The notes under the pieces were generated by a model. The model was not told the DNA's origin. It saw nothing but the letters and a program-made list of their open reading frames with translations, and did not search any database. The position numbers and the translations under genes were made by a program. From Dictyostelium discoideum (Eukaryota): a stretch of 64,000 nucleotides of DNA. The stretch covers positions 2,496,001 through 2,560,000 of the forward strand of contig CM000155.2 in NCBI GenBank assembly GCA_000004695.1, read 5' to 3'. This document shows positions 37,687-57,640 of this stretch, one piece after another (the first letter of the stretch is position 1; each line of letters begins with the position of its first letter).

Positions 37687-37689
<3 letters not shown>

Positions 37690-38321
37690 AGGATATCAAT
37701 TATTTTATTATCCTTATTATTTTTATCATTACACTCATTGATTAAAGCTGACATCACTAAATTGAGTGTTTGTGGTGTAAGTTACTATTTAATATTTTTT
37801 TATTATTATTAATTATTAATTATTAACTATTTATTATTTATTAATTATATTATAGTCAGCAAGAGCAGTACCAACAGCAACACAAAATCCAAAACCAACA
37901 TGTGTAAATGTTAATTCACAAGGTATACCAACAGCAGGTTTAAATTCAGCTGCATTTGATAATGGTGTAAGATGTGGTCAATGTTATGAATTGACAGGAC
38001 CATTGGGTAAAACTGTTGTAATGGTCGCTGATGTATGTGATGCTGGATCTGCATGCACACAATCTGATTTATTTAATTTCATCATTCCAAATGAAGAATT
38101 TGATAAAATTGGTAACCGTTCTGACTATGGTAATATATTTTCATTGTGTTATCAAATTGTATCCTGTGGTTATAGTGGTAATGTTCAAGGTGTTTTCACT
38201 GGTCCAAGTAGTTCACCAAATACTTTTACATATTTCCTCAGTGTTGTATTTTCAAATAATAATGTTGCAGTAAGTTAATTTATTTATCATTTATTATTTA
38301 TTATTATTTGTTATTAATTGT

Positions 38322-38369
<48 letters not shown>

Positions 38370-39326
38370 AAGATTAAAAAAGTTTTAATTAAAGGTCTTT
38401 CTTGGCCATTATATGAATCTTTGACAGGTCAAAATGGTAATTGGAAATGGAATAAAAATTCTTATGAATTACAATTCCCAGCAACTTTATATATTACTAG
38501 TAATACTGGTGAGACTATAACTTATAAAATGAATTCAAGACCAATTACTAATCAACCAATTGACCTTGATTTTCAATTTAATCCAAAAGCAATTTCAAGT
38601 TTAGAGAATAATGAATGTAGCATGGCATTATTACCACAGTATATTTATCAAGATGGTTTATCTTATGGTTGGGTCGATAGTCAATCTTTCAATTATGCAA
38701 AATTCACTGATAAATCAAGTGATACTAAAAGTGGTAGTGGAACATGTATCAATGCCCAATTGGATGGCCATGGTGGTGTTAAATTCACTAGAGAAGGTGA
38801 TTTCCAAACTTCATATTTAGATAAACTTAGCTTTGATATTAAAACCTCTGCTGATAGTAGTTCATTTGCAGTTTATTTTGGTGATGTTGCAACTAAAAAC
38901 ATTGACCCATTAGTAGCCTCAACTTGGACCACTGTTGAATTGAGTGTTAAATCTTTAACAAATAATACAGTTGAAGGTTCTATAACATTTTTCAATAATC
39001 AAGCTGATCCAATTAATATATGGTTAGATAATATTAAATGGACATACACAGATGATGCTCCTCTTGATCAACCAACAATGGATTTAATTGAAGTAAATAA
39101 TAAACCATCAACAACATCAGGTACTGGAACCACTTCAAGTAAACCTTCATCTAGTAGTGGTGGTGTTAGTGGTGGTGGTATTGGTAGTGAAAGTTCAATC
39201 TATGGATTAAGTTCTGAAAACCAAGAAAATCAAAGTGGACATCATGCTTCTTCAAATACAAATATTTTATTACCAACTACTTTTGTTTTCTTTATTTCAA
39301 TTACAATTTTATCATTACTTTTTTAA
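37687..39326 (+). CDS. Expansin-like protein (paralogue 1), 485 aa. Signal peptide, expansin DPBB domain, second beta-rich domain, S/G/T linker, C-terminal hydrophobic tail (GPI/TM-like). Exons: 37687..37776, 37856..38269, 38373..39326.
   Basis: Exon 1 MRISIILLSLLFLSLHSLIKADITKLSVCG + GTAAGT. Exon 2 ...NGVRCGQCYELTGPLGKTVVMVADVCDAGSACTQSDLFNFIIPNEEFDKIG..., the expansin DPBB cysteine pattern. Exon 3 ...WKWNKNSYELQFPATLYITSNTGE...GGVKFTREGDFQTSYL... ending in TTFVFFISITILSLLF. Confidence 0.75.
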
Positions 39327-39538
39327 AATTATTATTATCATTATTATTATTCGAAAAATAAAAAAAAAAATAAAAAAAAAATAAAAAAAAAAATATCTTT
39401 TTCGTTCGTTTTTTTTTTTTTTTTTTCATTTTTTATTTTTTTTTTTTTTTTTTTTATATTATTTTTTTATTTCCTCTCTTTACCAAAATTTTGTACATAT
39501 AAAAAAAAAAAAAAAGAAAAAAAAGAAAGAAAAGAAAA

Positions 39539-41077
39539 ATGAATTTACAATTTTCAATACCAGGATTTGTTAGTCGTAGATATATTAATGAAACCAAAGG
39601 TAGAGGATTATTTGCAGAGAAATCATTTGAAAAAGGTGAATTAATTTTCTCGGAAAGACCACTATTTTCAGTTCAACATGTTTATAATAGAGCAACAGCA
39701 TGGACATGTGGTAATTGTTTTAAATTTTTAGGATCATTAAATAAACAAATGTTACATTATAGAAAAGTATTTGGAATTAAAGAGGCATCAGAATTACCAG
39801 AGTTTGAAAATCTTTTCAATTTTCATACCAAAGTTTATAGTTGTTTTGCAAAATGTGGTGAAAAATATTGTTCAGAAGAGTGTAGAAATGTTGCATTCTA
39901 TAGTCATCATCAAATTCTTTGTGTTGGTGAACAAACTCCAGATTCGAATCCAATGTATCAATTTAAAAAACATTCAATTGAAACAAATGAATTATTTTTA
40001 TTAGCTGCTCAAGCAATCGCTTGTTTAATTTGTAGAATTGCAAATGACCCATCTTCTGATCAACCAACTCAAATTAAAATTCCATTAACTACAAATAATA
40101 ATAATAATAATAATAATAATACAACTACTACAACAACTACTACAACAACTACTACAACAACTACAACTACAACTACAGGTAATTCATCACAGGATACAAT
40201 TATACAGGCACCATTGGTTGAAAGAATTTGTAATGAATTCTTTTCAGAATATCAACATAGAGAATGGTGGGATGTTAGAATTGATGGTAATTTCACATTG
40301 GAGGAAGCAAAAGTGTGGTCAAATGAATCATTGGAATTATTGAGAAAAGCATTGATACCATTACTTCAAAATAATCCAAAAACTAATAATCAAGTATTTA
40401 TTGGCACTGTTTTATCAATGGAATTCTATTCACATTTACTTGGTCTTTTAGAGATGAATGATAATTCAATTGGTTTCTTTAATCCATTGGAATTATTTAG
40501 AAGAGATATCAATGCCATTGGTAAAGGTCCTTTCACAACACCACCAATTCAAAAGAATTTAAAAGATCGTTCAAATGCTGTTTTAGCTTCAACCGTTGAT
40601 GCTTTCCGTCAATATCATAATGAACAAGATGATCAATGTGATCAAGAAGATTGTAATGATCATGAACATTCTCATGGTGATTCAATGGATGATGATGATC
40701 ATCATGGTCATGGTCATTCTCATGGTCATGGTCATGGTGGTTCTCATGGTCATGGTGGTTCTCATGATGATCATGCAATGGAAGATAATCAAGAGGAGGA
40801 AGAGGATGATGTAGTTGAAGAGGTTTTCCCATCTTTTGATGGTTTTGGTATTTTTGGTCTTCAAGCAATGGTTAATCATTCTTGTGAACCAAATATTACT
40901 GTAGTTTTTGAAAACCATGATAATCGTGCTCACATTAAAGCAACTCGTAGAATTGAAGCTGGTGAAGAATTATTCCATACATATATTGAAGAAACAAATC
41001 CATATGATGTTCGTCAAGAAGATTTAATTACTTATGGTTTAAAATGGGAATGTGGTAAATGTTTAGAAAAAATTTAA
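39539..41077 (+). CDS. SET-domain protein with an interrupting Cys-rich (MYND-like) zinc-finger segment (SMYD-like split SET) and a His/Gly-rich insertion. 512 aa, single exon.
   Basis: N-SET (INETKGRGLFAEKSFEKGELIFSERPL). Cys-rich segment (WTCGNCFKF...CFAKCGEKYCSEECRNVAF...HQILC). C-terminal SET core ...MVNHSCEPNITVVFENHD...ATRRIEAGEELFHTY. Insert HEHSHGDSMDDDDHHGHGHSHGHGHGGSHGHGGSHDDH plus poly-N/poly-T. Confidence 0.75.
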   Translation: MNLQFSIPGFVSRRYINETKGRGLFAEKSFEKGELIFSERPLFSVQHVYNRATAWTCGNCFKFLGSLNKQMLHYRKVFGIKEASELPEFENLFNFHTKVYSCFAKCGEKYCSEECRNVAFYSHHQILCVGEQTPDSNPMYQFKKHSIETNELFLLAAQAIACLICRIANDPSSDQPTQIKIPLTTNNNNNNNNNTTTTTTTTTTTTTTTTTTTGNSSQDTIIQAPLVERICNEFFSEYQHREWWDVRIDGNFTLEEAKVWSNESLELLRKALIPLLQNNPKTNNQVFIGTVLSMEFYSHLLGLLEMNDNSIGFFNPLELFRRDINAIGKGPFTTPPIQKNLKDRSNAVLASTVDAFRQYHNEQDDQCDQEDCNDHEHSHGDSMDDDDHHGHGHSHGHGHGGSHGHGGSHDDHAMEDNQEEEEDDVVEEVFPSFDGFGIFGLQAMVNHSCEPNITVVFENHDNRAHIKATRRIEAGEELFHTYIEETNPYDVRQEDLITYGLKWECGKCLEKI

Positions 41078-41712
41078 CCAAATAATAATAAAGAAAAATG
41101 GAATGAATAAAAAAAAAAATAAAAAAAAAAAAATAAAATAAAAAAAAAAGAATAAATAGAATAAAGTTTTTAAATTATTATAAATTAAATTATTTAATTT
41201 ATGATAAAATATAAAAAATAAAAAAAGTAGTGGTTTATTATTTTATTCAATTTCAATAAATATATATATATATATAAAATATTTAACGAGTAACCCCCTA
41301 TTTTTTTTTATTTTTACTTAATTTTATAATTTATTTAAATATTTTAAACCAAAAAAAATTAATAAAATACAAAACCCACACACAAACACACAAAATCAAA
41401 TTATAAATTTTCCATGATTTACAAATATATAAATATGGAGTGGGTTAAAAGAAAATTTGTAATTATATTTTTACTTTAATTTAGTTTTTTAAAACTACCT
41501 TCATAATATTTTATTTGTATAATAGAGTTTATTTTCCTTTTTTCAACCTAAGTTTTATTTTATTTTTCCCCTTTATCTTGATCTTTATTTTATTTTTTTA
41601 AAATGGGGTGATATTTTAAAAATTGTGGGTAATTTGATTTTAATATTCCCTAATTGTTGTTTATTTGATTATTTTAGTATATAGAATTTTTAAAGTATCT
41701 ATTATTATTGTG

Positions 41713-41756
<44 letters not shown>

Positions 41757-42128
41757 ACAGTTTTTGAATTTAATAATGGTATAATATGGTTAAATTTATT
41801 TTGATTTTAATTAATCTAACATCACAAATAATTTTTTTATTTATTTTTATTTAATTATTTAATTTTTAATTTTTACAAACTATTGTCTTTTTTTTTTTTA
41901 AAAATAATTATTTATTTAGTATTTTGGTTTTTTTTTTTTTTTCCTTTTTTTTTTATATTTTTTATTTTTTTTTTTTTTTTACTTCAATAAGTTATATATT
42001 ATTTATTTATTTATTACATCATCCTTTTAAAATTTCACACTATTTATTTATTTTTTAAAAAATATACAATAAAAAAAAAAAAAGATAATTAAAATAAATA
42101 AAAAAAAAAAAAAAGTATAACAATAAAA

Positions 42129-43938
42129 ATGAAAATTAATAAAAACAATTATTTTAAAATAATAATATTTATAATATATGTAATAATAAATTTAATAAAT
42201 GCATCTGATAATGTAAAATTAAGTAATTGTGGAGTGAGTATATATTTTTTATTTTATTATTATTATTATTTTTATTTTTTTTTTTTTTTTTATTTTTTAT
42301 ATATTTATTTTAATTTTTTTTTTTTTTTTTTTTTTTTCTTTTTTTAAAAATATTTTAAAAAGCAAGCAAGAGCTGAACCAACATTTAAACAATCAGAAAA
42401 TGGTGGACAATGTCAATTACCACCACCATCAATAGGAACAGCAGCATTATCATTATCAGCATTTAATGGTGGTGCAAGATGTGGTCAATGTTATGAATTG
42501 ACAGGACCGTTGGGTAAAACTGTGGTAATGGTTACTGATGGTTGTAATTCTGGTGAAGCATGTACACAAAAGGATTTATTTAATTTTATAATTTCAAATA
42601 AAGATTTTGATAAAATTGGTAACTCTTCATCTTATGTAAATATTTATTCATTAGGTTATCAAGAAGTATCTTGTGGATTTCTTGGTAATATTAAAATTAA
42701 ATTTGGTGGTTCATTAGGTCACAATGGTAAAGTTGACTATTCATATTATTTCACTGTTTCATTTTCAAATTTTAATATTGGTGTAAGTAATTTTAAAAAT
42801 AATTAATAATTAATAATTATATTTAATTATAATTTTATTAATATTTAATAAAAAGATTAAACAAGTTCAAATTTTAGGTACTGGTATGGTATCTTATATG
42901 AAATTGAAAAGAAGTTTAGGTGGATTTACATGGAATCAAGAGAGTGGTGGATCAAAATTACAATTTCCTGCCACATTGGTATTGACAGGTGTTGACGGTC
43001 AAATTATATCATATAAATTTAGACAACCTCCTGCAAATATTGCAATTGATATGAAGAAACAGTTTATACCACAGGTTGGATTATTATCATCGAAATTCAA
43101 TCAATCGGAAATTTGTGGAATGGGTAATGTACCAGAATATATCTATGAAGATTCATTGACATTTGGTTGGATAGTATCAAATAGTTGGAGATTCAATGTA
43201 TTCAATCTTTCATCACAAGACACCGACGATAATCCAACACTTGGTGAGAGTGTAATTAAGATGGATTTGGCTGCAAATGGGGGTTTGGCATTCACCAGAG
43301 AAGGTGGGTTTCAAACAAAGTACTTGGAATCGTTGAAAGTGATGATCAAAGTGTTACCACCAACAAATAGTCTACAATGTTTTTTCGGTGCTTCTGGTAT
43401 CTACGTTATCCCCGGGCCATTGGGCGGAGATTGGCAAGAGATCTCAATCCCGATATCAGTTTTGAAACCACAAAAAGTTGAATACTCATTATCATTCTAC
43501 AATAACCAAGGCCAATCGATAACAATGTGGATTGATAATATTAAATGGATTTTTTCACCAGAGGCCCCACCAACACCTCTAATAATAACTGATCCTACTG
43601 TAACCCCACCACCACTACCCCAATCGATTGTAACTGCTGCTGCTGGTGTTGTAGGTTTAAATTCAATTGGTATTACTTCAAATAAAGGTGGTGTGGCTAA
43701 TTTAGTTGATGGTAGTAGTAATGATGATGATGGTACTGGTGGTACTGGTGGCGGTGCTTCAAATAAAGTTGGTAAAAGAGTTGATGGTGAAGATGGCGAT
43801 AATTTCATGGGTGGTAATAATGCTTTCTCTTACTATAATGATGATAATTCTTCAAATATTTTATTATTCTCTTTTAATATTACTTTAACATTTTTATTAT
43901 TATCTTTAATTATTAATATTTTATTATTGTTATTTTAA
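42129..43938 (+). CDS. Expansin-like protein (paralogue 2), 535 aa, same three-exon architecture and C-terminal hydrophobic tail. Exons: 42129..42233, 42363..42782, 42856..43938.
   Basis: Exon 1 MKINKNNYFKIIIFIIYVIINLINASDNVKLSNCG + GTGAGT. Exon 2 ...ARCGQCYELTGPLGKTVVMVTDGCNSGEACTQKDLFNFIISNKDFDKIGNSSSYVNIYSLGYQEVSCGF...FSNFNIG + GTAAGT. Exon 3 IKQVQILGTG...WNQESGGSKLQFPATLVLTGVDGQ...FTREGGFQTKYL... then PTPL/Gly-rich linker and LLLSLIINILLLLF tail. Confidence 0.75.
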
Positions 43939-44154
43939 AAAAAAATAAAATAAAATAAAATAAATAAAAAAAAAATCTTGGGATTATCTTTTCTTTTTTT
44001 TTCATTTTTTTTTTTTCATTTTTAATTTTTTTTATTTTTTTTAAAATTTTGATCAATTGCCTAACCCAAAATGTCTTTTTTTTTTCAAATAACCATTTTT
44101 ATTTTTAATTTTTTTTTAAAAAAAATAAAATTTTATATTTTTTTTTTTTTTTTT

Positions 44155-44199
<45 letters not shown>

Positions 44200-44483
44200 C
44201 ATTGATTGTGTATTAAAAAATTTTTTTTTTTTTTTTTTTTTTAATTTCTTATCTATTTATTTAATCTTTAATTTTATTGTAAATAATTAATAAAGAAAAA
44301 AAAAAATAACTCTTAAAAAAAAAAAAAAAAATTTTTATTTACAATTTTTTTTTTTATGATATAAAATAAATATATAGAAAAATAAAATTTTTAAAAAAAT
44401 TAAAAAAAAAATAAAAATAAATAAAAATAAAAAAAAAAGGTGTTAAAAAAAAAAAAAAAAAAAAAAAAAATCATTCAAACACA

Positions 44484-45285
44484 ATGGAGCAAGAAGATCA
44501 ACAATACGAGGAAGATTCTTCTCAATTCAATAAAAATAATTATGTACCAGACGATAATAGTGGTGAAAAAGAACAACCAGCAACGACCACAGAAATAACA
44601 ACAACAACGACAACAACAACACCAACAGCAATAGATAATAATGATTCAGATTTAACAGAAGATGTAATAAATGCAGTATCAAAATATAAAGATGGTACAA
44701 GTAGTAAGTCTGTCAAAAAGACAAGAAGAAAGTTTGCAATGAATATCGCAACTGATGAAGTATTTAATTTACCGCCAATGGAACAACAACAACAACAACA
44801 ACATCTACAACCACCTCTTTCACCAAATAGTGCAAGTAATACAAATTTTGGAGCAGCTGCAACTTTTAGTCCAACTTCTATACTCTCAAAAAATAATAAA
44901 ATAATCACTTCCCAACAAACATCATCTACTTCAATATCACCACTTAAACCATCACCACTTTCATTCTCTTCAGGAATTTTACCTCCAAGTTCTAGAATTT
45001 ATGAATCACCACCAACCTTGGGGAAATATGTAAGTTAAAATATTATTTTAAATAAAAAAAAAAAGTTTTAAAACGCTAATATCTTTTTTTTTTTTTTTTT
45101 TAAAAAAAAAATAAAAACAATATTTAGCCATTATTACATCATTTAGGACAAAGTTATCTTGGTAATACTTTCTCAGCAGTACCTCCAGAATCAAGTGAAT
45201 ATTTTTCCAATTAAATTAATTGATAGAGAAAGAATAAACTTAATTCATCAAAATATTCTTTCAGTAAGTGATTAGTTTTTTTAAA

Positions 45286-45334
<49 letters not shown>

Positions 45335-45355
45335 ATTATTATTATTTATTATTAA

Positions 45356-45442
<87 letters not shown>

Positions 45443-48382
45443 AATTATCAAAAAATACTAATTTTTTTTTTTTTTTTATGAAAGAATGAATTTCAATTAT
45501 TAAAATCATTAAAACACAGTGGTATTGTTAATTATATTGGAATGATAAATGATAATACAGGATTTGGTATTGTACAAGAATTTTATGAGAATGGATCATT
45601 AAGTGATATTTATAATAGATCAGGAGCATTCCAAGAATCATTAGTAGCAAAATATACATTACAAATATTGGAAGCATTAGGATACATTCATTCACAAGGT
45701 ATCGTTCATAGGAATTTAAAATCAAATAATGTATTATTGGCAAAAGGTGGTAAAGTAAAGATATCAGACTTTGCAATCGGTATTAGATCTAGTGCAATCG
45801 AACCATCCATTAGATTCTCATTGAATGGTTATCCATTTTGGACATCACCAGAGGTGCTCTCGATGAAACCATTCAATCATAAAGTAGATAGTTGGAGTAT
45901 TGGTTGTTTGATAATGGAGTTGATTGTTGGTCATCCTCCATTCTCACATTTAGGTCCAATGGAAGCATTGATTGAAATTATTAATCCATCAACAACTATA
46001 CTACCAAATTGTTTAGATGAGAATGAACAATCATTATTCTCTTTAGAGTTAAATCAATTTTTAGAATTATGTTTTAAAAAGGAACCATCCGATAGAGCTT
46101 CAGTACATGATTTACTTAGACATCCTTGGTTATCAATGTTTAATGATAGTTCATCATCATCATCATCATCTTCATCGCAAGCTCATCCAACAGTTCAATC
46201 AAATAATCTTAATGGTAATGTAAATTCTAGAACTCATGGTGAATTTTATTCTTTAGATTTCTTATCACAATTTGAACAAAATGAAAAAGAAATTTCAAAA
46301 ATTTTATCATCTGGTGATCAATTAGATTCAACTTCAAATCAAATTGATTTAAAGAAATTCCAATTTAAACATTATAATAAGAAACAACAACAACAATACA
46401 ACTATAATTATAATAATTACAACAACAACAACAACAACAATAACAATACTAATGATAATGATAATGAATGTGGTGAACAAACTGAGGAAATTAATTTATC
46501 AAGCTTATCAAAAGATGAACAAATTGAAAGATTAAAAGCAATAATTGATCAAAATGAAACAATGGCAAATAATTTAAAGTATACAATGCAAGAGGTATTA
46601 CAAGAACAAACTAAATATTATGAAATTTGTGAATCAATGAAAAGTAAAACTTTAGAGATTTTAAATCAAAATAAAACTGGTGCAAGAATTTCTGCACATA
46701 GTAATTCATTATTAAAGAGAACCAATCAAATGGCAAATGATTTGGGTAGAAAATATGAAATTCTTCAATCCAATATTAAAAGATTAGAGGATTATTTAAT
46801 TACAAAAGATGATTGTGCAAAGAAATTGGCAAATGTAGTTTACAGAAATAAAATTTCATTCGATTCCCTATTGAATCCAACTTTGGCTGCTAATTTACTC
46901 TACCAAATTGGTTCAAAAACTTGGAAAAAAGGTCAAGAGAAACGTGCTTTTGCAACTCTAAAAGATAATTTCTTATTTTTCTTTAAAAATGAAAAATCCT
47001 CTTATCCAATCGATGTAATATATTTAAATGATAAGAGGAATATTTCAATAACTTCAATTCAAGACTCTAAAAAGAAAGCATATATAATTTGTATTGGTAC
47101 AACAATTCATGATCAAAATAATTTAGATCCTTCAAATAATAACGAATCTGTGAATTTATCAACTTCACCAGGTTCACTTGTAAATAGTAATAGTAACCCC
47201 TCAATTTCAAATTCTCTTAATAATAATAATAATAATAATAATAACAATAATAATAATAATAATGGAAACCCAAATGTAATAATAACAACAAATAATAATT
47301 GTAATAGTAATAGTAATGGAAATAATATAGCGACACCTCCAATTTCAATACCGAATGGTAAAGAAGTTAAAGAAGGTAAAGAAATTAAAGAAATTAAAGA
47401 ACCAAAAGAAAAAGATAAAGATAAAGAAAAAGATAAAGATAAAGAAAAAGATAAAGATAAAGAAAAAGATAAAGATAAAGAAAAAGAAAAAGATAAAGAC
47501 AAGGAAAATAATAATAATAATAACAGTAATAATAATAACAATAATGGTAATAATTATAATAGTTCAGAAACAATTTGGTGTTTATTAGCATTTGACAATT
47601 CAAAGAATATGGAGAATTGGTATGGAGTTTTAGATAGTGTAGTTCCTTGGTATGATAAAAGAGCTTATGAAATTTCAAAACCAATGTTACCAATTGAAAA
47701 TAAAAAACATCAAAAACAAAAATCATTAGATTCAACCAATAAACAATCACCAGGAAGTTTAGGTGGTGCTGGCGGTGATGTTTCTTGGAAGAAAGAAAGT
47801 GGTGGTATTAAATTTCAAGGTGTCGTTGGTGTTAGATTGGATGATTTAATGACTCGTGAAAGTCCAACAGCTGAATTACCCTATTTCCTATCGAAGATGT
47901 TGAAATTCTTAGAAAAGAATGTCGATGAAGAAGGTATTCTTAGATTATCAGGTTCTTCAACTGAAATCCTTGAAATGAAACAACAACTTCAAAGAGGTGA
48001 ATCAATCGATTACACCTATAAAGATCCTCATGCCGTTACTGGTCTATTGAAATTGTTTTTACGTGAATTACCAGAATCAATCTTACCCGAACATTTACGT
48101 ATTCAAAGTACAGAGATCCTTTCAAATGGTCGTTTTGGTGAAAAAGAAAAAATTAAAGAAATTCAAACACTCTTAAGTAATCTTAGTAGACCTCATTACA
48201 ATGTCTTAAAACATATGTTATTTTTCGCTAAATTGGTCGTTGATAGAAGTGAATATAACAAAATGGTTATTGCAAATGTAACAACTTGTTTCTCTCCAAC
48301 TTTACGTATTCCTCCTGGATTATTTAACTTTTTAATTAATACTTATGATTTATCTTTTCCAAAATTCAATTTATCAGTTTAA
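44484..48382 (+). CDS. Pseudokinase-RhoGAP fusion protein, about 1187 aa. Exons: 44484..45029, 45147..45263, 45485..48382. S/T/Q-rich N-terminus, STE-like kinase fold with degenerate catalytic motifs, coiled-coil/poly-N/(KEKD)n region, C-terminal RhoGAP domain.
   Basis: Kinase C-lobe VQEFYENGSL...IVHRNLKSNNVLL...KISDFAIG...WTSPEV...DSWSIGCL, i.e. HRN instead of HRD, DFA instead of DFG, SPE instead of APE. N-lobe (exon 2 plus start of exon 3) VNIFPIKLIDRE...NEFQLLKSLKHSGIVNY lacks a GxGxxG loop. RhoGAP: GVVGVRLDDL...EGILRLSGS (arginine finger)...VTGLLKLFLRELPESILP...NVLKHMLFFAKLV...MVIANVTTCFSPTL. Phase-0 junctions at GTAAGT (45030) / tttAG (45145-45146) and GTAAGT (45264) / aaAG (45483-45484). 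The second intron carries (ATT)n. Confidence 0.7.
47380..47515 (+). repeat. Coding 18-bp/9-bp periodic repeat (aaagataaagataaagaaaaag)n giving a (KEKDKD)n tract inside the pseudokinase-RhoGAP gene
   Basis: KEKDKDKEKDKDKEKDKDKEKDKDKEKEKDKDKE read in frame. The antisense strand produces the spurious ORFs 47113..47541 and 47394..47750. Confidence 0.85.
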
Positions 48383-48545
48383 AAAAAAAAAAAAAAATTA
48401 AATAAATAAAATAATAATAAATAAATAAAAAAATAATAATAAAGATAATAATAATAATAAAATTGATCTAGTTTAATACTAAAAAAAAAATAAAAAAAAT
48501 AAAAATAATTTATTGTAATATAACTTTTTTTTTTAATTTTTTTTT

Positions 48546-49333
48546 TTAAATAAATTTATCAGTAACAAAAGCAGGAGTTGGAGGACAATCTGGAGTGAAA
48601 TTCCATTTAATATTATCGATCCATAAAGTATTGGTTTGATTTTTATTATTATAAAAAGATAATGAATATTCAATATCATTTTTTGATTTTATTTTTGAAG
48701 CAGGGATTGTAATTTCAGTCCATTGCCAACCTAATGTTGGTAAAGTGTAAGAACCAACTTGTCCCACATAAACCTGTAAAGCACTAATTGGTGGGGCTGC
48801 TCTAATAGTAAAACTTAATGATTTTATATACTTTGTTTGAAAACCACCCTCTCTGGTGAAATGTAAACCTCCATATCCTTTTAATTCAACTTGAATTAAT
48901 TTTTTACCCATTGATGCTTTTTTATTGGTTTCGTGAGATTCCAAATTAATATAATCAAATTTCCAACTGAAATAGGTCACCCATCCAAGTCCTAGGGATT
49001 CTTGATAAACATAATCTGGTAATTTACCCATCTCACATTTCTTTTCAGATTCTCTTAAAACCAATGCACTACTTGACTTTTGTGTTGGTGGTGCAAATTG
49101 TTTCTTAATATCAATCATTTGGCCTGATGGTGGTTTATTAAATTTATATGATAGGGTTTGACCATCAATACCTGTCAAAATTAATGTTGCTGGAAATTGT
49201 AATTTTGCTCCGCCACCTTCTTGATTCCATGTATATTTTCCCAAATCTCTTTTTAATGTACTAATTCTTGACATTCCTGTTCCCATCAACTGAACTTGTT
49301 TAATCTTAAAATTAAATATATATTAATTTATTA

Positions 49334-49364
<31 letters not shown>

Positions 49365-49854
49365 GATTTTATAATATTGTTTCATTTACTTACACCAATA
49401 TTAAAATTTGAAAAACTAACATGAAAATAATAAGAGTAGTCAGGTCTTCCAGCAATGGAACCACCCCCAAAAACCGCTTTTATATATCCACTAAATCCAC
49501 AAGACACTTTTTGATAACCCAAAGAATAAATATTGCCATATGCACTTGAATTACCAATTTTATTAAAATCTTTTTTTGAAATGATAAAATTGAATAGTTC
49601 TTTTTGTTGGCATGCATCACCAGCATCACATCCATCTGTTATCATAACAACTGTGCTTCCTAGTGGGCCTGTTAATTCATAACATTCCCCACATCTTGAA
49701 CCTTTATCAAATGCAAAAACATTCAATGCTGCTGTTCCAATAACTCCTGGTAACGGTAAACCACATTGACCACCATCTGTTGAACTTTCACCATTTGGAA
49801 CACATCTAGCTTTCTAATAATAATAATTATTATAATTATAATAATAACAATATA

Positions 49855-49937
<83 letters not shown>

Positions 49938-50079
49938 TAATAAAAATGATTTAGTTATTTTTTTTTATGCATTCTTTTTTTCTTTTACTTACTCCACATT
50001 CACTAATTTTTATATTTGTCGAATTTATAGTTTTAAATGTAGATAGAATTAATAGAATTATTAACTTTAAAGTTCTCAT
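48546..50079 (-). CDS. Expansin-like protein (paralogue 3), 421 aa. Same exon structure but it ends immediately after the second domain, with no S/G linker and no hydrophobic tail. Exons (minus): 49993..50079, 49394..49813, 48546..49304.
   Basis: Exon 1 MRTLKLIILLILSTFKTINSTNIKISECG + GTAAGT. Exon 2 ...SRCGECYELTGPLGSTVVMITDGCDAGDACQQKELFNFIISKKDFNKIGNSSAYGNIYSLGYQKVSCGF...FSNFNIG + GTAAGT (420 nt, same as paralogue 2). Exon 3 IKQVQLMGTG...WNQEGGGAKLQFPATLILTGIDGQ...FTREGGFQTKYI...TPDCPPTPAFVTDKFI-stop. First intron contains an (ATT)n block. Confidence 0.75.
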
Positions 50080-50934: not shown

Positions 50935-53900
50935 TCAAATATGACTATTTTGATTTGGTCTTAGTAATGAAGGTTGTTGTTGAAATTTAAAAGATCCTTG
51001 ATATATATTTGTACCAACTGGATTATAATTATTATTATTACTATTATTATTATTATTATAATTATTATAATTATTATTATTATTATTATAATTATTATAA
51101 TTATTATTATTATAATTATTATAATTATTATTATTATTATTATTATTATTTGGATTTAAAAGTTCTTTTTTATATTCTTCAATTGCAGCTTTAATTTCTT
51201 CTTCAGTTAATTTACCATATTCATCACCAGTGAAATAAGCATAAACATCTTTGATACCAATGATAGCTTGTTTATTTTCTCTAATGACTTTATTGAAAAT
51301 TGGATCAGTACCATGTTCCAACTCACGATTAATTGAAACGACATCATAAGGAATATCAACCAATTCACCGATTTTGAGTCTAATATCTTCTTCGACATTT
51401 TTAGGAGTTTCAGAATCGACAGCTCTCTTTGAGAGAGTTTGTTTATAGATCATTTGAGTATAAGTTTTTTGTTCACCAGTACCAGCCATAACAAGGGTAT
51501 AAACGTGAACTTGATTCTTTTGACCCATTCTATAACATCTATAAACGGCTTGTCTATCGTGAACTGGATTCCAACTTAGATCCATAAGTATGACTCTAGT
51601 ACCACCGGTTAAATTTGTACCTAAACTACCAGCTTTAGTTGAAATTAAAAACAATTTAATATCATTAGCCATATCATTGAATTGATCGATAAGTCTTTGT
51701 CTAGTTTTAGTTGGAGTTGAACCATCCAATCTAAAATAATCTCTACCAGCTTTCCAACCCAACTTTTTTTGAATGAAATATTCCAATTGATTAAGTGTTG
51801 AAATTGAGAAACTAAATGTAACCACTCTTTCATTATTTTGATTGAAATGTTTGAGCATACTAAAGAATAATACAAATTTATTACTTCTTTCAACTATACC
51901 TCTTCTATAACCAATTTGATTGAAATAAGTTGAAAACACTGATGGTTGTAACAGATCGGATGCTTTAATCTCATTTAAATGAATAACACGTTGAATTAAT
52001 TCATTTTTATAGATGATATCAGCTGTTGGTACATCATTTGCCTTTAGAATAGATTTTAATTCTGAAATCGATTTCTTTTCCAAATCTTTTGTTACCAATG
52101 GTTTCTTTTCTAGTAAACCATCTGGATGATTACAAACCACTGTTAAAACTTCATATTGCGCGAAATGATCATTGAAATTACTATTTTGTATTGAAATTTC
52201 CAAGAGTTTACTTTGTATATCGGTTCTTTTCACTAGAATCATCTTTTCAGATTTAGAAACTTGCATTTCTCTATCTAAAACCTCTGGTCCTAATCTTTGT
52301 ACGAAATCTTTAATCAATGATTGTAATGCTGCTAATCTACCTCTCATCAGCTTGATATCTCTTTCATTTGATTCACTCTTTGTACCTGCTGCTATTGGTT
52401 TAACGAATCTGTCTTTAAATTCTTTTTCATTACCTAAATGAAGTGGACGAATGTAATCAATCATAGTATAATACTCCATGAGATTATTTTGTAATGGGTA
52501 ACCAGTTAACAATACTTTTCTATGGGTTTTAATTAGATTGGCAGCATCTGAGATTTTAGTTTTAGTGGATTTCAAACGATGACCTTCATCTACAATTAAG
52601 AAATCAGTTTCTAATATCTTTGCAATCGATGGATGTCTCTCTTTGATATGTCTATTGATTGTGGATGAGAATGATTCAAAAGTCATTGCTAATACACCCC
52701 CACCACTGAACCAATTATCAAATGTTGGAAAACGTCTAACCAAATCCTTATGACGTGGTGCAAACACTCTGATGTTGGTGCTCTTTTCTGATTTTGGTAA
52801 CCATTTCTTAAATTCTTTCTCCCAATTGTATAAAGTATTGGCAGGTACAATCAAGAGATACTTTGTACCCTTATGATATCTATTGTGAGTGTGTAAGAAT
52901 GCTATCACTTGTAATGATTTACCCAAACCCATTGAATGTGCTAAAATGCAACCTTTACCTTTGAAAACCATATTGTCCCAAAGAAATTGTACACCAGAAT
53001 GTTGATGAGGCTTTAAGAAACATCCAATCTCTGGATCCAATAGAATATCTTCACCTTTACCATTAGCACTTTTATTACCTGGGAAAATGAATAATTTATC
53101 TCTTGCCACACCTTCTGAACTTCTAGCTGCTCTCATTTCTTCGATTTGTTTATTCTCAATCTCTTCTTCTTTTCTAACTCTAAGTGTTTGTCTATTTACA
53201 TTATTAACGCTTTGAACTTCCATTTTTTTAGTTTGTAATCTTGTTTTTGATATTGGTGGTGATGTTGATGACGATGACGATGATGAGGACGACCTTAATG
53301 ATGATAGAGTGGTTTGTTTTAATGGTGGTGTAGTTTTATTGCTGCTTCTGGTGTTAATAACGCTCATTTCAATATCTGAAGATTCTGAACTAAGTTCATC
53401 ATCACTTTCACTACTTGAAATGGTGATTTCACCTTCACCACTTTCACTACCACTACCACTAATACTTTCACTTGAATCTGAATATTTTATAAATTGTTCC
53501 AATTCACTATCTTCTTCACTTTCACTCTCACTCTCAATAATATTCTTTGGGGTTGTTGAAGATCTTCTAGCTCTTATAGTTCCACCAATACTTCTTCTTC
53601 TCCTTTTTCTTCTTGTTGCTGCTGCTGTTGTTGTTGTTGTTGTTGTTGTCTTTGGTTTTTGTGGTTTATAACTATCAGAGGTTGAACTATCCAAATCATC
53701 ATCCATTTCACCTTCACCATCACTACCATCACTAATTACAATTCTTGCTCCATTTGATGAATCTATAATACTCAAATCGTCACTATCATCCGATAAATCG
53801 ATTGTTAAACTTGCTTTTCTCAATCTTCTATTATTATATACCTTTGTTTTTGTTAATCCCTCCAATTTTGAATCTAAATCTTGTGCACGATGTGCTTTTA

Positions 53901-55833
53901 TTTTTAACTCTTCCTCTTCCTCCTCCTCTTCATCTTCATCGGTTGTAGTGGTACTAACAATTTTTCTTTTTTTATCATTTGTGTCCCCCTCTTCATCATC
54001 ATCATCATCATCATCATCACCATCACCATCTCCTCCCCACATATTATAATCGTCATCATCATCATTATTATTTCTACTAGTTTGTGGTGGAAATTTTGGT
54101 TCACCTGGTTTCTTTCTTTTCTTTTGTGATGGATTCGATGGGTTCCAAAGGTCTTCTAAATCTAATTTCGAAGTTACTGGAGTAGTAGTAGTTGTTGTTG
54201 TGGTGGTAGTGGTTGATTTTTGTTTTTCACTTTCACTTTCACTTTCATTTTCACTATCATTTTCATTTTCACCTTTATTTTCATGAAGTGAGGATTGTTG
54301 AGATAATAAATTATCTTCATTCCAATCATCAGGACTATCGTCATCGTCATCATCAGTTTCTTGTTGAACAACAATTAATTTTGATTTTTGTGCACTTGAT
54401 GATTGTTGTTGTTGTTGTTGTTGTTGCTGTTGTTGCTGTTGTTGCTGTTTAATTTGTGATGGTGATTCTACATATTCTGGTGGAGGTTTTTGGCTGTGTA
54501 ACATATCGACAATCCATTCCTCTTTCCAAAAATCTTCAAAAGTTTGACTTATCGCTTTATAAACTTTTGGTGAAAATTCATATTGAAAGTCATTAAATAA
54601 TTTACATTTTCTAGCGTTATATTCAAAATATCTCTTTTCTCTAATCTTTATAACTTCCATATTTTTTCTAGACAAATTCCATAATGGTAAAGCCATCTTT
54701 TTCAAACTATCTATATTCTTTTCAAACCACTCTCTCTTTCTCTCTGCGATATAGTCTTCAATAACTTCTAAATCTACGATTTTATTTGACTGTAATTGTA
54801 ATTGTGATAAAGGATTTGATTGTTGTAAAAATTGTGAAACAAGTCCACCACCACCACCACCCCTATTCTGATCACTTTTATTTTTATTTTGTTCATAATA
54901 CATTAAATCCTCTTCTTTCTCCCTCTTTCTTTGTTCTCTACTCTTTAAATTCTCTAGATCTCTTTGTTCTTGAGTTTTACTTGATCTATTTACTTTTCCA
55001 TCTGTATCCATTTTATCTTCATTTTCATTTTCATCATCATCCTCTTTTTCTTTATCTTTTTCTATCTTTTCTTTTTCTAACTTTTCTTTTAGTGATTTTT
55101 CTTTTTCCAACTTTTCTTTAAGTAATTTTTCTAGTCTCTCTTTTTCTAATCTTTCTTTTTCTAATCTTTCTTTTTCTAATCTTTCTCTTTCTACTCTTTC
55201 TTTTTCTAAGCTTTCTTTTTCCAATCTTTCTTTTTCCAACTGTTCTCTTAGTGATTTTTCTTTTTCTAGTCTCTCTTTTTCCAGTCTCTCTTTTTCTTGT
55301 CTCTCTTTTTCTAGTCTCTCTTTTTCTACTCTTTCTTTTTCTAGTCTCTCTTTTTCTAATCTTTCTTTTTCTAATCTTTCTTTTTCTAATCTTTCTAATC
55401 TTTCTTTTTCTAATCTTTCTTTTTCTAATCTTTCTTTTTCTAATCTTTCTTTTTCTAATCTCTCTTTTTCTAATCTTTCTTTTTCTAATTTCTCTTTTTC
55501 TAATCTTTCTTTTTCTAATCTTTCTAATCTTTCTTTTTCTAATCTTTCTTTTTCTAATCTTTCTTTTTCCAATTTTTCTAATTTTTCTTTTTCTAATTTT
55601 TCTTTTTCTAATTTTTCTTTTTCTAATTTTTCTTTTTCCAACTTTTCTTTTTCTAATCTTTCTAATCTTTCTTTTTCTAATCTTTCCTTTTCTAATTTTT
55701 CCTTTTCTAATTTCTTTTTTTCTTTGTTTTTTTCTTTATCACTTTTATATACATTTGGTGCTTTTTCTTCTTCAATTTTTAATAATCTGTTATTTTCATC
55801 ATTTTTTGGTTTGATATCAAATTGTTTGGTTGT

Positions 55834-55864
<31 letters not shown>

Positions 55865-57640
55865 TTTGAAATAGTTTCTTTTTTATTTGATTTCTTTCCT
55901 TTTCCATCTCTTTCATTGTCGGTTGAGGTTGATCTAGATCTTGTCATTGGCATTGATCCACTTTCACTACCACTAAAGCTACAACTTCTACTTCTACTTT
56001 CAATAGTTGAAGTACTACCTGTACTTCTACTCCTGTTCAATGACGGACTATGATCTCTACTTTCTCTACTACTGCTGCTACTACTGCTGCTACTACTAGA
56101 ACGACTTCTACTACGACTTCTTTGTGTTATTTTACCTTTACCTTTACTTTTACTACTACTTTTGTTTGTTTCATCTACACTACTATCTGATTCCATATCA
56201 ACATCCTCTCTATCAACTATGGAAGGATTTTTAAATTTATTATTTTTATTTTTATTATTATCATCATCAATATTATCTTTTTCAAATCCACTACCTCTCA
56301 CCATAGTTAATCTCTTTTTTTGTGGTGTGTGTACTAAATCTGTAAGTTTTAATTCGTCAACACCACTACCGCTACCACTACCATCTTTTTCATCATCATC
56401 TGTTTGCGATTTAGTACTTGTGATATCTTCAATACGATCTTCATACTCTAAACTAAAATCATTATCATCGTCATCATCTTCATAATTATTATTGTTATTA
56501 TTATTAGTATTAGTATTATTATTATTATTTAATGCATTTGAAATATCATTATCAGAATTACCATCATCTTTGCTAACATCTAAAAAATTAATATTATGAT
56601 GCATTGTATCTTCGGAATAAGATTGCATATGAGAATTTCTCCTATTATTATCTTCAAGGGATGTCTCTAACAATGTTCCCAAACTATTTTTAAATTCACT
56701 ACCAGTATGTGATGCTGAAAATGCATTTTTAACTGCAACTTGAAATGCTTCTGATTGTAAAAAATCTTCGATAAACTTTCTTTGATCATTACCATCATTT
56801 TTATTATTATTGTTATTATTATTATTGTTATTATTATTATTTTCAGAAACTGGTGTATTATGAATCTTTTTATTATCGCTTTCTAATATTATTATAAAAT
56901 ATATACATAAATTTATTAGTTATTAGAGATATATATATACATAATTTATTAAATAAAATTTAAAAATTACCTTTAAATTGTTTAATTGATCTTTTAATAT
57001 CAATGATATCACCAATTTTAAAACTCATCATATTTAAATGCTCATCAGTTAATAAAATGAATTGATCCCATTGTGTAATTTTTTGATCTTCTAATACTGG
57101 TTGATATTGTAATAGATCCAATCTTGTCAATAAATCTTTAATATTATTATCAATAACTTTGGGTCTTTGTATTGGTGTTGATACAGGTTGAATTGCTCTA
57201 TTTTCATTATTTTGTTTATTTACACTTTTAATTAATATATTATTTTTTGGTTTTGGTAATGTCGTTAAATTTGTAGGTGTTGTAGGTGTTGTAGGTGTTG
57301 TAGGTGTTGCCGTTGTCGTCGTCGTTCCTTTAGATTTTGGTGTTGTTGTTGTTGTTGTTGTTGTCGTTGTTGTGTTTGTAGGTGTTATTGGCGTTGTTGG
57401 TGTTGTTGTATGCGTTGGAGTGGATGGTAGTTGAACAATACTATGCTTCTTTGTAATCACACCACCCGTCGATTTACTCTTTTTAAATAGATTGGCAGAA
57501 TTTGATTTATCAATATTACTATTGTTATTATTTATACCATCGCTGTTGTTGTTATTGTTGTTATTGTTGTTGTTGTTCTTGTTATTTTTCTTATTGTTTG
57601 TGTTGTTATCATTATCATTTATTTTATTATTTGTGCTCAT
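50935..57640 (-). CDS. SNF2-family DNA-dependent ATPase (ATRX / RAD54L2-ARIP4-like helicase core), about 2200 aa. Two exons (minus): 56971..57640 and 50935..56882. N-terminal T/P-rich region, SAM-like domain, a long ([10 protein letters not shown])n charged repeat and poly-Q.
   Basis: Helicase motifs [19 protein letters not shown] (I), [11 protein letters not shown] (II), [15 protein letters not shown] (III), ...[40 protein letters not shown] (V-VI). Upstream exon begins with ATG 57638-57640 ([10 protein letters not shown]...) and ends ...[28 protein letters not shown] (SAM-like) + GTAATT. Acceptor attAG at 56883-56885 gives phase-1 continuation ...[19 protein letters not shown]... into the 1915-codon ORF. 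Confidence 0.85.
55080..55730 (-). repeat. Coding 15-bp tandem repeat (about 40 units) encoding ([10 protein letters not shown])n within the SNF2 gene
   Basis: Plus strand reads ttctttttctaatct repeated. Protein reads [17 protein letters not shown].... The antisense strand generates the spurious poly-LFLIF ORF 55251..55814. Confidence 0.9.

Follow-up and report, generated by a model that had tools for sequence, protein, structure and literature searches.

DDB_G0293186 of Dictyostelium discoideum is an annotated, unnamed and unstudied expansin-like gene, the tenth of this species and the sister of expl9, and its protein ends without the linker and hydrophobic C-terminus that are present in two neighbouring paralogues. 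The overall account proposed here, in which an ancestral anchored protein underwent an expl9-type duplication and an old loss of the tail in one copy, the shortened gene being retained and its product untethered, appears quite probable.

Identity of the Third Paralogue and Structure of Its C-Terminus

The gene was analyzed within a window of 64,000 nucleotides (assembly GCA_000004695.1, contig CM000155.2, positions 2,496,001 to 2,560,000 of the forward strand; coordinates below are those of the window). The window is A+T-rich in the extreme (15–33% G+C), and its introns are short, with GTAAGT...AG borders. Paralogue 3 consists of three exons on the minus strand; both of its introns have the GTAAGT...AG form, and the stop codon TAA is located at 48548–48546. 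The interval 48546–49304, from which the initial annotation started, is a real part of this gene but represents its last exon only:

49993–50079, minus strand: DDB_G0293186 exon 1, residues 1–29, with the start codon and the N-terminal signal-peptide-like segment MRTLKLIILLILSTFKTINS
49394–49813, minus strand: DDB_G0293186 exon 2, residues 30–169, with the greater part of expansin domain 1 and the beginning of domain 2
48546–49304, minus strand: DDB_G0293186 exon 3 (last), residues 170–421 and the TAA stop (48548–48546), acceptor ...TTTTAAG/ATT, translation as in Q54C76

The spliced product (421 aa) coincides letter-for-letter with Q54C76/XP_629343, "Expansin-like protein DDB_G0293186"; the gene and its 421-aa model are already public. 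A literature search did not reveal DDB_G0293186 by name in the main text of any paper found. The N-terminus of the protein is hydrophobic (Kyte-Doolittle value 2.0) and signal-peptide-like according to a heuristic. Paralogue 1 is expl8 (Q54C80, 485 aa; 37687–39326, plus strand) and paralogue 2 is expl9 (Q54C78, 535 aa; 42129–43938, plus strand), the spliced product of each being exactly the deposited protein. All three genes have a common three-exon layout with introns at matching positions, and DDB_G0293186 shows 58% identity to expl9 and 43% to expl8.

The initial annotation had stated that paralogues 1 and 2 end in an S/G/T/P-rich linker and a C-terminal hydrophobic segment, both missing from paralogue 3, and analysis of the three C-termini bears this out. 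The tail of Expl8 and Expl9 is composed of a linker of 85–120 residues, rich in S, G, T and P (also N), and an uncharged hydrophobic stretch up to the last residue. The C-terminal sequences are ...TTFVFFISITILSLLF-stop in Expl8 (best Kyte-Doolittle window 2.5) and ...LLLSLIINILLLLF-stop in Expl9 (best window 3.0). Paralogue 3 terminates as ...WIDNIKWNFTPDCPPTPAFVTDKFI-stop, and no 15-residue window among its final 40 residues has a Kyte-Doolittle value above approximately 0. The surplus of about 110 residues that had been ascribed to paralogue 2 amounts to 111, counted from the point where paralogue 3 ends in the alignment. The regions concerned are as follows:

39066–39326, plus strand: expl8 linker and C-terminal hydrophobic signal, with the hydrophobic end at 39276–39323
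43603–43938, plus strand: expl9 linker and C-terminal hydrophobic signal, 111 residues without a counterpart in DDB_G0293186, with the hydrophobic end at 43894–43935
48549–48581, minus strand: DDB_G0293186 C-terminal stub, residues 411–421 (PTPAFVTDKFI), pLDDT 61 and then 40

The stop of DDB_G0293186 is located 10 residues past the last folded domain. It had been described as following directly on a conserved second domain; the stop does closely follow a folded domain, but this domain is the third one, which is CBM8-like. Residues 408–421, comprising the stub and the three residues ahead of it (408–410), align to EAPPTPLIITD of Expl9; the stub is what is left of the beginning of the ancestral linker.

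The short form is shared by other species. The stop and the last residues (V[TIN]DKFI) are common to D. citrinum, D. dimigraforme, D. firmibasis and several D. discoideum isolates, with orthologue lengths of 421 aa in D. citrinum and 420 aa in D. dimigraforme and a partial model in D. firmibasis. In D. purpureum the orthologue (409 aa, 64% identity) likewise has no tail, its stop being five aligned positions earlier. In addition, independent annotations of eight genomes give 420–421 aa for the DDB_G0293186 protein. Since several species and isolates have the stop and the end residues in common, the short form is not a strain error, an assembly artefact or a product of chance. The tails of expl8 and expl9 are likewise kept across species.

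Domain Structure of the Protein

A structural model of DDB_G0293186 was obtained in AF2 using an alignment of 53 sequences; an earlier model with a 12-sequence alignment (pLDDT 48) was set aside. The model used has a pLDDT of 90.4 and a pTM of 0.88, with disorder only in the last ~11 residues. According to the Foldseek analysis, domains 1 and 2 are similar to the expansins 9ms5, 4jcw, 2hcz and 3d30 (TM 0.70–0.85, normalised to target). The 53-sequence family profile also matches solved expansins at positions 27–236 (7wvr, 3.8e-38; 4jcw, 6.7e-26; 2bh0, 3.9e-23; 2hcz, 7e-22) and, separately, carbohydrate-binding modules at positions 255–407. The latter positions correspond to the third domain:

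48582–49049, minus strand: third domain of DDB_G0293186 (residues ~255–410), a predicted beta-sandwich carbohydrate-binding module like DdCBM8 of CelA, by AF2, Foldseek and profile analysis

For domain 3, the most similar structure in Foldseek was 7t7y (TM 0.72, rmsd 3.2, E = 5e-7), followed by CBM29, CBM4 and CBM11 modules. The profile of domain 3 alone matches 7t7y with E = 4.2e-8 over 132 profile positions. A phmmer search of the PDB sequences with the domain 3 sequence alone gave no match, and DdCBM8 was found by the profile only. In none of the 53 relatives is domain 3 covered by a Pfam family.

As for the expansin domains, Pfam analysis of the single sequences of the three paralogues gives only sub-threshold matches; in paralogue 3, EXPB1_D1 scores 15.1 bits (gathering cut-off 27) and DPBB_1 13.8 bits (cut-off 28.8). 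At E <= 0.01, DPBB_1 is detected in 24 of the 53 relatives and Expansin_C in 6. The sequence of DDB_G0293186 is divergent, yet on the profile and modelled-fold evidence its homology with expansins can be regarded as established.

The HFD motif of domain 1 is absent, residues 104–106 being N-F-I in paralogue 3, Expl8 and Expl9, while the Asp of this motif is kept in 32 of the 53 wider relatives. This Asp is required for wall loosening in the bacterial EXLX1. Since it is missing in the three paralogues, the term "expansin-like" here describes the fold only, and wall-loosening activity of these proteins seems doubtful.

The conserved ligand residues of DdCBM8 are W572, W574, Y600 and Q686 (PMC9079177). 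At ~18% identity, the residues of paralogue 3 aligned to these sites are F281, W283, Y313 and Y387, and the equivalents, at the same level of identity, are N/W/N/Y in Expl9 and Q/F/H/F in Expl8. Aromatic residues occupy all four aligned ligand positions in paralogue 3 and one to three of them in the siblings. A separate point concerns the pair Cys33–Cys409, which would have been gained within the D. discoideum complex and might hold the remaining stub of the C-terminus in place.

Type of the C-Terminal Anchor in Expl8 and Expl9

The anchor type was assigned by rules that call for a signal at the N-terminus and, towards the C-terminus, a group of small residues, a short spacer and then a hydrophobic run that extends to the last residue and has no charge after it. 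By established rules, a three-part layout of this kind defines a GPI-attachment signal. The hydrophobic windows of Expl8 and Expl9 end 0–1 residues from the C-terminus, and their uncharged C-terminal stretches have a length of 26 and 30 residues, respectively. Small residues, which are candidate omega sites, precede the hydrophobic stretch (HHASSN in Expl8 and DDNSSN in Expl9). The GPI-like layout fits Expl8 (...HHASSNTNILLPTTFVFFISITILSLLF), Expl9 (...DDNSSNILLFSFNITLTFLLLSLIINILLLLF) and their orthologues. A similar ending, with a hydrophobic stretch up to the C-terminus, no charged residue after it and small residues ahead, was found in 54 of 93 relatives. The tails of paralogues 1 and 2 had been taken for membrane anchors, and the end position, the lack of charge and the small residues are indeed the features of an anchor signal under these rules.

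The hydrophobic ends might instead be single-pass type I transmembrane anchors, and the contrast with DDB_G0293186 would then be between a secreted and a transmembrane protein. With 16–26 residues the hydrophobic segments of Expl8 and Expl9 are long enough for a bilayer, true transmembrane segments with cytoplasmic tails occur in some distant relatives (P0054, P0068, P0159), and automatic database annotation presumably calls the segments of Expl8 and Expl9 transmembrane. The distant relative P0054 (...VVAFYIYSRNRTGEKPSA) is an example, from within the family, of a genuine type I anchor. In all close relatives, however, the hydrophobic stretch stops at the last residue or 0–3 residues short of it, without a basic stop-transfer residue or a cytoplasmic tail; a candidate small-residue cluster (ASSN, NSSN, SGS) is located 8–12 positions upstream, and an N-terminal signal-like sequence is present. 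A transmembrane anchor is therefore the unlikely, though still serious, alternative. Since the textbook layout is found in Expl8, Expl9 and their orthologues, GPI anchoring is clearly the favoured prediction from sequence. A literature search for statements on GPI or transmembrane anchoring of Dictyostelium expansin-like proteins found nothing relevant.

Loss of the Tail in the Lineage of DDB_G0293186

An exhaustive profile search of 1.84 billion representative proteins revealed 379 relatives. The closest of them come from all major dictyostelid groups, and those of Polysphondylium violaceum, Tieghemostelium lacteum, Cavenderia fasciculata and Acytostelium subglobosum end in a linker and a hydrophobic C-terminus. 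In the neighbour-joining tree constructed from 358 columns, the tail-less sequences formed a separate clade (bootstrap 100) that was sister to expl9 (80), with moderate support of 82 for the joint node. The expl8 sequences and the orthologues from other groups lay outside this node, and all outgroups were tailed. Gene order and orientation in D. purpureum are the same as in the window: expl8, expl9 and the kinase/RhoGAP gene are followed by the tail-less gene in convergent orientation.

Since the tail-less clade is sister to expl9 and every outgroup is tailed, the tree implies a single loss. The simplest history suggested by the sequences would be a duplication of an expl9-type gene and then one truncation before the split of D. 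discoideum and D. purpureum. The direction proposed in the initial annotation, a loss in paralogue 3 rather than a gain in its siblings, agrees with the tree (100/82) and with the tailed outgroups. The reverse direction, with the tail gained by expl8 and expl9 or their ancestors and the tail-less form ancestral, could be argued from tail-less three-domain relatives elsewhere (T. lacteum KYQ94172 and several environmental sequences). It is very improbable, given that paralogue 3 is nested in a clade otherwise composed entirely of proteins with linker and tail (Expl9, Expl8 and the orthologues of four other species), that the first linker residues survive in it (CPPTPAFVTD versus APPTPLIITD in Expl9), and that homologous-looking tails would have to have arisen independently at least three times.

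As for the loss itself, a codon comparison of TDKFI-stop with TDPTV of Expl9 gave no clear sign of either a nonsense mutation or a deletion as the route of truncation. Among the 93 relatives with matching architecture (close orthologues included), 54 have the GPI-like end, 28 have no tail, and in 7, which are distant, a transmembrane segment leads into a basic tail on the cytoplasmic side; T. lacteum KYQ94172 (409 aa) is an independent tail-less case. The anchor state, as read from these C-termini, appears to be labile across the wider family. It is common for paralogues to diverge in whether they have an anchor signal at the C-terminus, and the anchor loss described here is ordinary gene-family divergence that took place long ago.

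Completeness of the Gene Model

The short product of DDB_G0293186 would also be explained by an incomplete gene model, with a downstream exon or an alternative splice restoring the hydrophobic tail. The region downstream of the stop was analyzed in this respect:

45542–48382, plus strand: 3' part (ORF) of the convergent protein-kinase/RhoGAP gene, which borders the spacer
48383–48545, no strand assigned: spacer of the two convergent genes (3' UTRs), 163 bp, 4.3% G+C, with AATAAA on the minus strand at 48514–48509

The D. citrinum orthologue of the convergent gene has Pkinase and RhoGAP Pfam matches. The AATAAA lies 31 nt past the stop of DDB_G0293186, and the 3' end of the mRNA would be placed here on the basis of sequence and conservation. 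The corresponding spacer measures 104 bp (D. dimigraforme), 169 bp (D. citrinum) or 230 bp (D. purpureum) in other species. The coding sequence and the stop align perfectly across three species, and the alignment collapses directly past the stop. Translation of the minus strand throughout the 163-bp spacer gave no plausible downstream exon. No consensus splice donor was found in the last 200 nt of exon 3, where the only GT sites are GTTGGC, GTCCTC and GTTACT; all six introns of the three genes start with GTAAGT or GTGAGT. A short-read contig containing the last exon was considered as transcript evidence and rejected, being genomic (intron and spacer present).

What can be said for a hidden exon is that the T-rich spacer gives long strings of F, I and L in all three frames, and that a hypothetical splice from GTTACT (48566) to CTAG/ATC (48467) would read ...PAF-INFIIIIIFIIIFLF.... 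Such strings are a composition artefact, expected of any T-rich sequence with 4% G+C, and the hypothetical donor is far from those of the six introns. The putative acceptor and the open frame are both missing from the indel-containing spacers of D. citrinum and D. dimigraforme, and the hypothetical frame would enter the stop-codon region of the convergent gene. Moreover, the six codons that would turn intronic are kept, together with the stop, as coding sequence in four species, and the eight independently annotated genomes agree on the length. An incomplete model is therefore extremely improbable. The initial annotation had seen no ORF in 48383–48545, and the absence of an unrecognised exon from this interval is corroborated by the lack of a consensus donor, the G+C content of 4.3% and a stop conserved in four other species.

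Selection and Expression

The dN/dS ratio of DDB_G0293186 is 0.09–0.11 within the D. discoideum complex and 0.24 in comparison with D. purpureum. In five species the reading frame is intact, as are the splice sites and all eight core cysteines. In the life-cycle proteome of 2026 (PMC12821622, supplement S1), Q54C76 was detected in fruiting bodies only, in both replicates (~1e6), and Expl8 in culmination and fruiting bodies (~5e7). The proteomic signal of Q54C76 is weak relative to that of Expl8, and the samples are whole fruiting-body lysates. Published RNA-seq summaries describe expL9 as prestalk-enriched and expL8 as prespore-enriched (PMC4408306).

By every test available, DDB_G0293186 is functional and under purifying selection. 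The alternative of a degenerating, functionless truncated copy on its way to becoming a pseudogene can hardly be entertained: DDB_G0293186 has the smallest product of the three genes, the signal of this product in the proteome is low and the literature counts expL1–9 only (PMC4408306), but the conserved frame, splice sites and cysteines, the dN/dS of ~0.1, the detection of the protein in both replicates at one specific stage and an AF2 model that is confident throughout all argue against it.

Proposed History and Fate of the Protein

The ancestral protein would have started with a signal peptide, followed by the double-psi beta-barrel of expansin domain 1, by expansin domain 2 and by a CBM8-like beta-sandwich, and would have closed with a linker rich in S, T, G and P and a hydrophobic end. 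This ending, an uncharged hydrophobic segment to the last residue, would have had the layout of a GPI-attachment signal. An expl9-type gene probably duplicated in the lineage leading to group-4 Dictyostelium, and one copy would have lost everything past the first ~ten linker residues before D. discoideum and D. purpureum diverged. Purifying selection has maintained the shortened gene, which is expressed late, its protein having been detected in fruiting bodies.

All three proteins are expected to enter the secretory pathway. Expl8 and Expl9 would stay attached to the outside of the plasma membrane, which is where Dictyostelium makes cellulose. The product of DDB_G0293186 would leave the cell without a membrane tether and attach to cellulose in the matrix of the stalk, the spore coat or the sheath. 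The initial annotation had predicted a freely secreted protein, which is doubtful: two putative cellulose-binding modules are kept (expansin domain 2 and the CBM8-like domain), and the protein was seen in whole fruiting-body lysates. Since both modules are retained and the protein is present in whole fruiting bodies, a deposit in the matrix is likelier than a protein free in the medium, and DDB_G0293186 is most likely matrix-bound rather than freely diffusing. The gene model, the missing tail and its conservation, the direction of change, the domain folds and purifying selection were shown by the analysis, and the expression data come from a published proteome; we infer that Expl8 and Expl9 are GPI-anchored, that the tail-less protein is secreted and binds to the matrix, and that the copies share out any tasks among them.

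The "clean case of sub-functionalisation" announced in the initial annotation is a label rather than a finding: the loss is old, tail-less members recur (28 of the 93 relatives) and no result points to both roles in the ancestor. Neo-functionalisation and simple redundancy are further candidates. A more specific scenario is that, after the loss of the anchor, the protein acquired a full aromatic platform on the CBM8-like module as well as the Cys33–Cys409 pair and turned from a cell-surface factor into a matrix component; this seems rather improbable. The aromatic platform meant in this scenario consists of F281, W283, Y313 and Y387, at the DdCBM8 ligand positions.

The existence of a tenth conserved, expressed and anchor-less expansin-like member was not considered in knock-out studies that invoke redundancy. 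The products of expl8, expl9 and DDB_G0293186, with a third CBM8-like module missed by Pfam and no HFD Asp, may bind cellulose rather than loosen it. Comparison of the tethered and untethered proteins amounts to a natural experiment that could show whether wall modifiers must act at the plasma membrane or within the matrix. Outside Dictyostelium cell-wall biology, the significance of these findings is small.

Comparison with Known Systems

Earlier work on Dictyostelium expansin-like proteins reportedly includes that of Darley et al. 2003 and Ogasawara et al. 2009. The family is given as nine genes, expL1–9 (Kawata et al. 2015, PMC4408306), and ExpL3 was shown to bind Avicel cellulose (PMC4408306). 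DDB_G0293186 has no gene name and is outside this published count of nine. It resembles Expl8 and Expl9 in the signal-like N-terminus, expansin domains 1 and 2, the CBM8-like module and the eight core cysteines, and differs from them in lacking the 85–120-residue linker and the C-terminal hydrophobic signal.

Domain 3 is comparable with DdCBM8 of the D. discoideum cellulase CelA (7t7y; PMC9079177), with which it shares the host and the fold; aromatic residues stand at the aligned ligand positions. In contrast to DdCBM8, it is joined to an expansin and not to a GH9 cellulase, has Tyr in place of Q686 and, at ~18% identity, is a putative binder.

The two-domain fold is common to DDB_G0293186 and the solved expansins, namely, B. 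subtilis EXLX1/YoaJ (2bh0/3d30), the Clavibacter protein (4jcw), Talaromyces EXLX1 (7wvr) and maize EXPB1 (2hcz). DDB_G0293186 differs from them in the extra C-terminal CBM8-like module and in having NFI for HFD, the conserved Asp being absent, and its single sequence remains below the Pfam gathering threshold.

Pairs of secreted and anchored paralogues that arise by loss or gain of a GPI signal are general in families of surface proteins. As in such pairs, DDB_G0293186 and its siblings have a common ectodomain, with the C-terminal linker and signal present or absent, and the GPI anchoring of the siblings is here a predicted one.

Gene Order and Non-Coding Sequences

The gene order around DDB_G0293186 (Q54C76, 421 aa), the paralogue that lacks the linker and C-terminal hydrophobic tail of expl8 and expl9, was compared between D. 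discoideum (window 37687-50079) and D. purpureum (L001, GL870969.1, 10001-20545). In both species, expl8, expl9, the kinase/RhoGAP gene and then the convergent tail-less gene follow one another in the same order and orientation; the cluster is therefore older than the split of the two species. Two further ORFs were noted in the D. discoideum region:

39539-41077, plus strand, ORF lying between expl8 and expl9 and containing poly-N, poly-T and His/Gly-rich tracts
50935-56682, minus strand, ORF of 1915 aa that carries long coiled-coil-like (EKERL)n repeats and has a C-terminal half resembling a helicase

In D. discoideum, intron 1 of DDB_G0293186 (49814-49992, minus strand) is 179 bp long; its counterparts in D. 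citrinum, D. dimigraforme and D. purpureum span 71-81 bp. The extra length is an (ATT)n run of approximately 100 bp. In addition, spacers were compared at window 48383-48545 and at the loci of D. purpureum (L001:11373-11602), D. citrinum (L002:4420-4588) and D. dimigraforme (L003:4412-4515). In such T-rich Dictyostelium spacers (4% G+C), every frame gives a long open "hydrophobic" translation of F, I, L and Y, which is a trap in by-eye hunts for missing transmembrane or GPI tails.

Domain 1 and the Extra Cysteine Pair

The following residues of the tail-less protein were located:

49591-49583, minus strand, N104-F105-I106 at the HFD-motif position of expansin/GH45 domain 1
49804-49802, minus strand, Cys33
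48587-48585, minus strand, Cys409

NFI replaces the HFD motif in DDB_G0293186, expl8 and expl9, and orthologues of the three paralogues in other dictyostelid groups carry HF[I/M/G] at this position. The Asp of the motif is kept in 32 of 53 wider relatives. Judging by these sequences, the whole subfamily may be devoid of wall-loosening activity and act only as binders.

Cys33 and Cys409 occur together only in DDB_G0293186 orthologues within the D. discoideum complex; neither expl8 nor expl9 has them, and they are likewise missing in the outgroups and in the orthologue from D. purpureum. A putative disulfide between them might connect the C-terminal stub with the beginning of domain 1.

The CBM8-like Third Module

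In each of the three paralogues, the conserved C-terminal domain is a third module, whose beta-sandwich fold resembles that of CBM8. No Pfam family picks it up:

48582-49049, minus strand, third module of DDB_G0293186
about 43102-43572, plus strand, third module of expl9
about 38604-39065, plus strand, third module of expl8

According to the exhaustive profile search, the module is also present at 3-7 copies in the long proteins P0089, P0115, P0155 and P0164.

The four ligand residues (W572, W574, Y600 and Q686) of DdCBM8, the family-8 module of D. discoideum cellulase CelA, align with these residues of DDB_G0293186:

48971-48963, minus strand, F281-S282-W283 (F281 and W283 aligned)
48875-48873, minus strand, Y313
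48653-48651, minus strand, Y387

In this alignment of only ~18% identity, the tail-less clade has F-W-Y-Y at the four positions (4/4 species examined), expl9 has N-W-N/Q-Y and expl8 has Q-F-H-F. At the first of these positions, polar residues predominate in the outgroups; one environmental sequence (mg36) has Tyr there. The ~18%-identity alignment points to possibly stronger binding of cellulose by the tail-less paralogue. The nearest solved structure to the third module of all three paralogues is that of DdCBM8 itself (PDB 7t7y).
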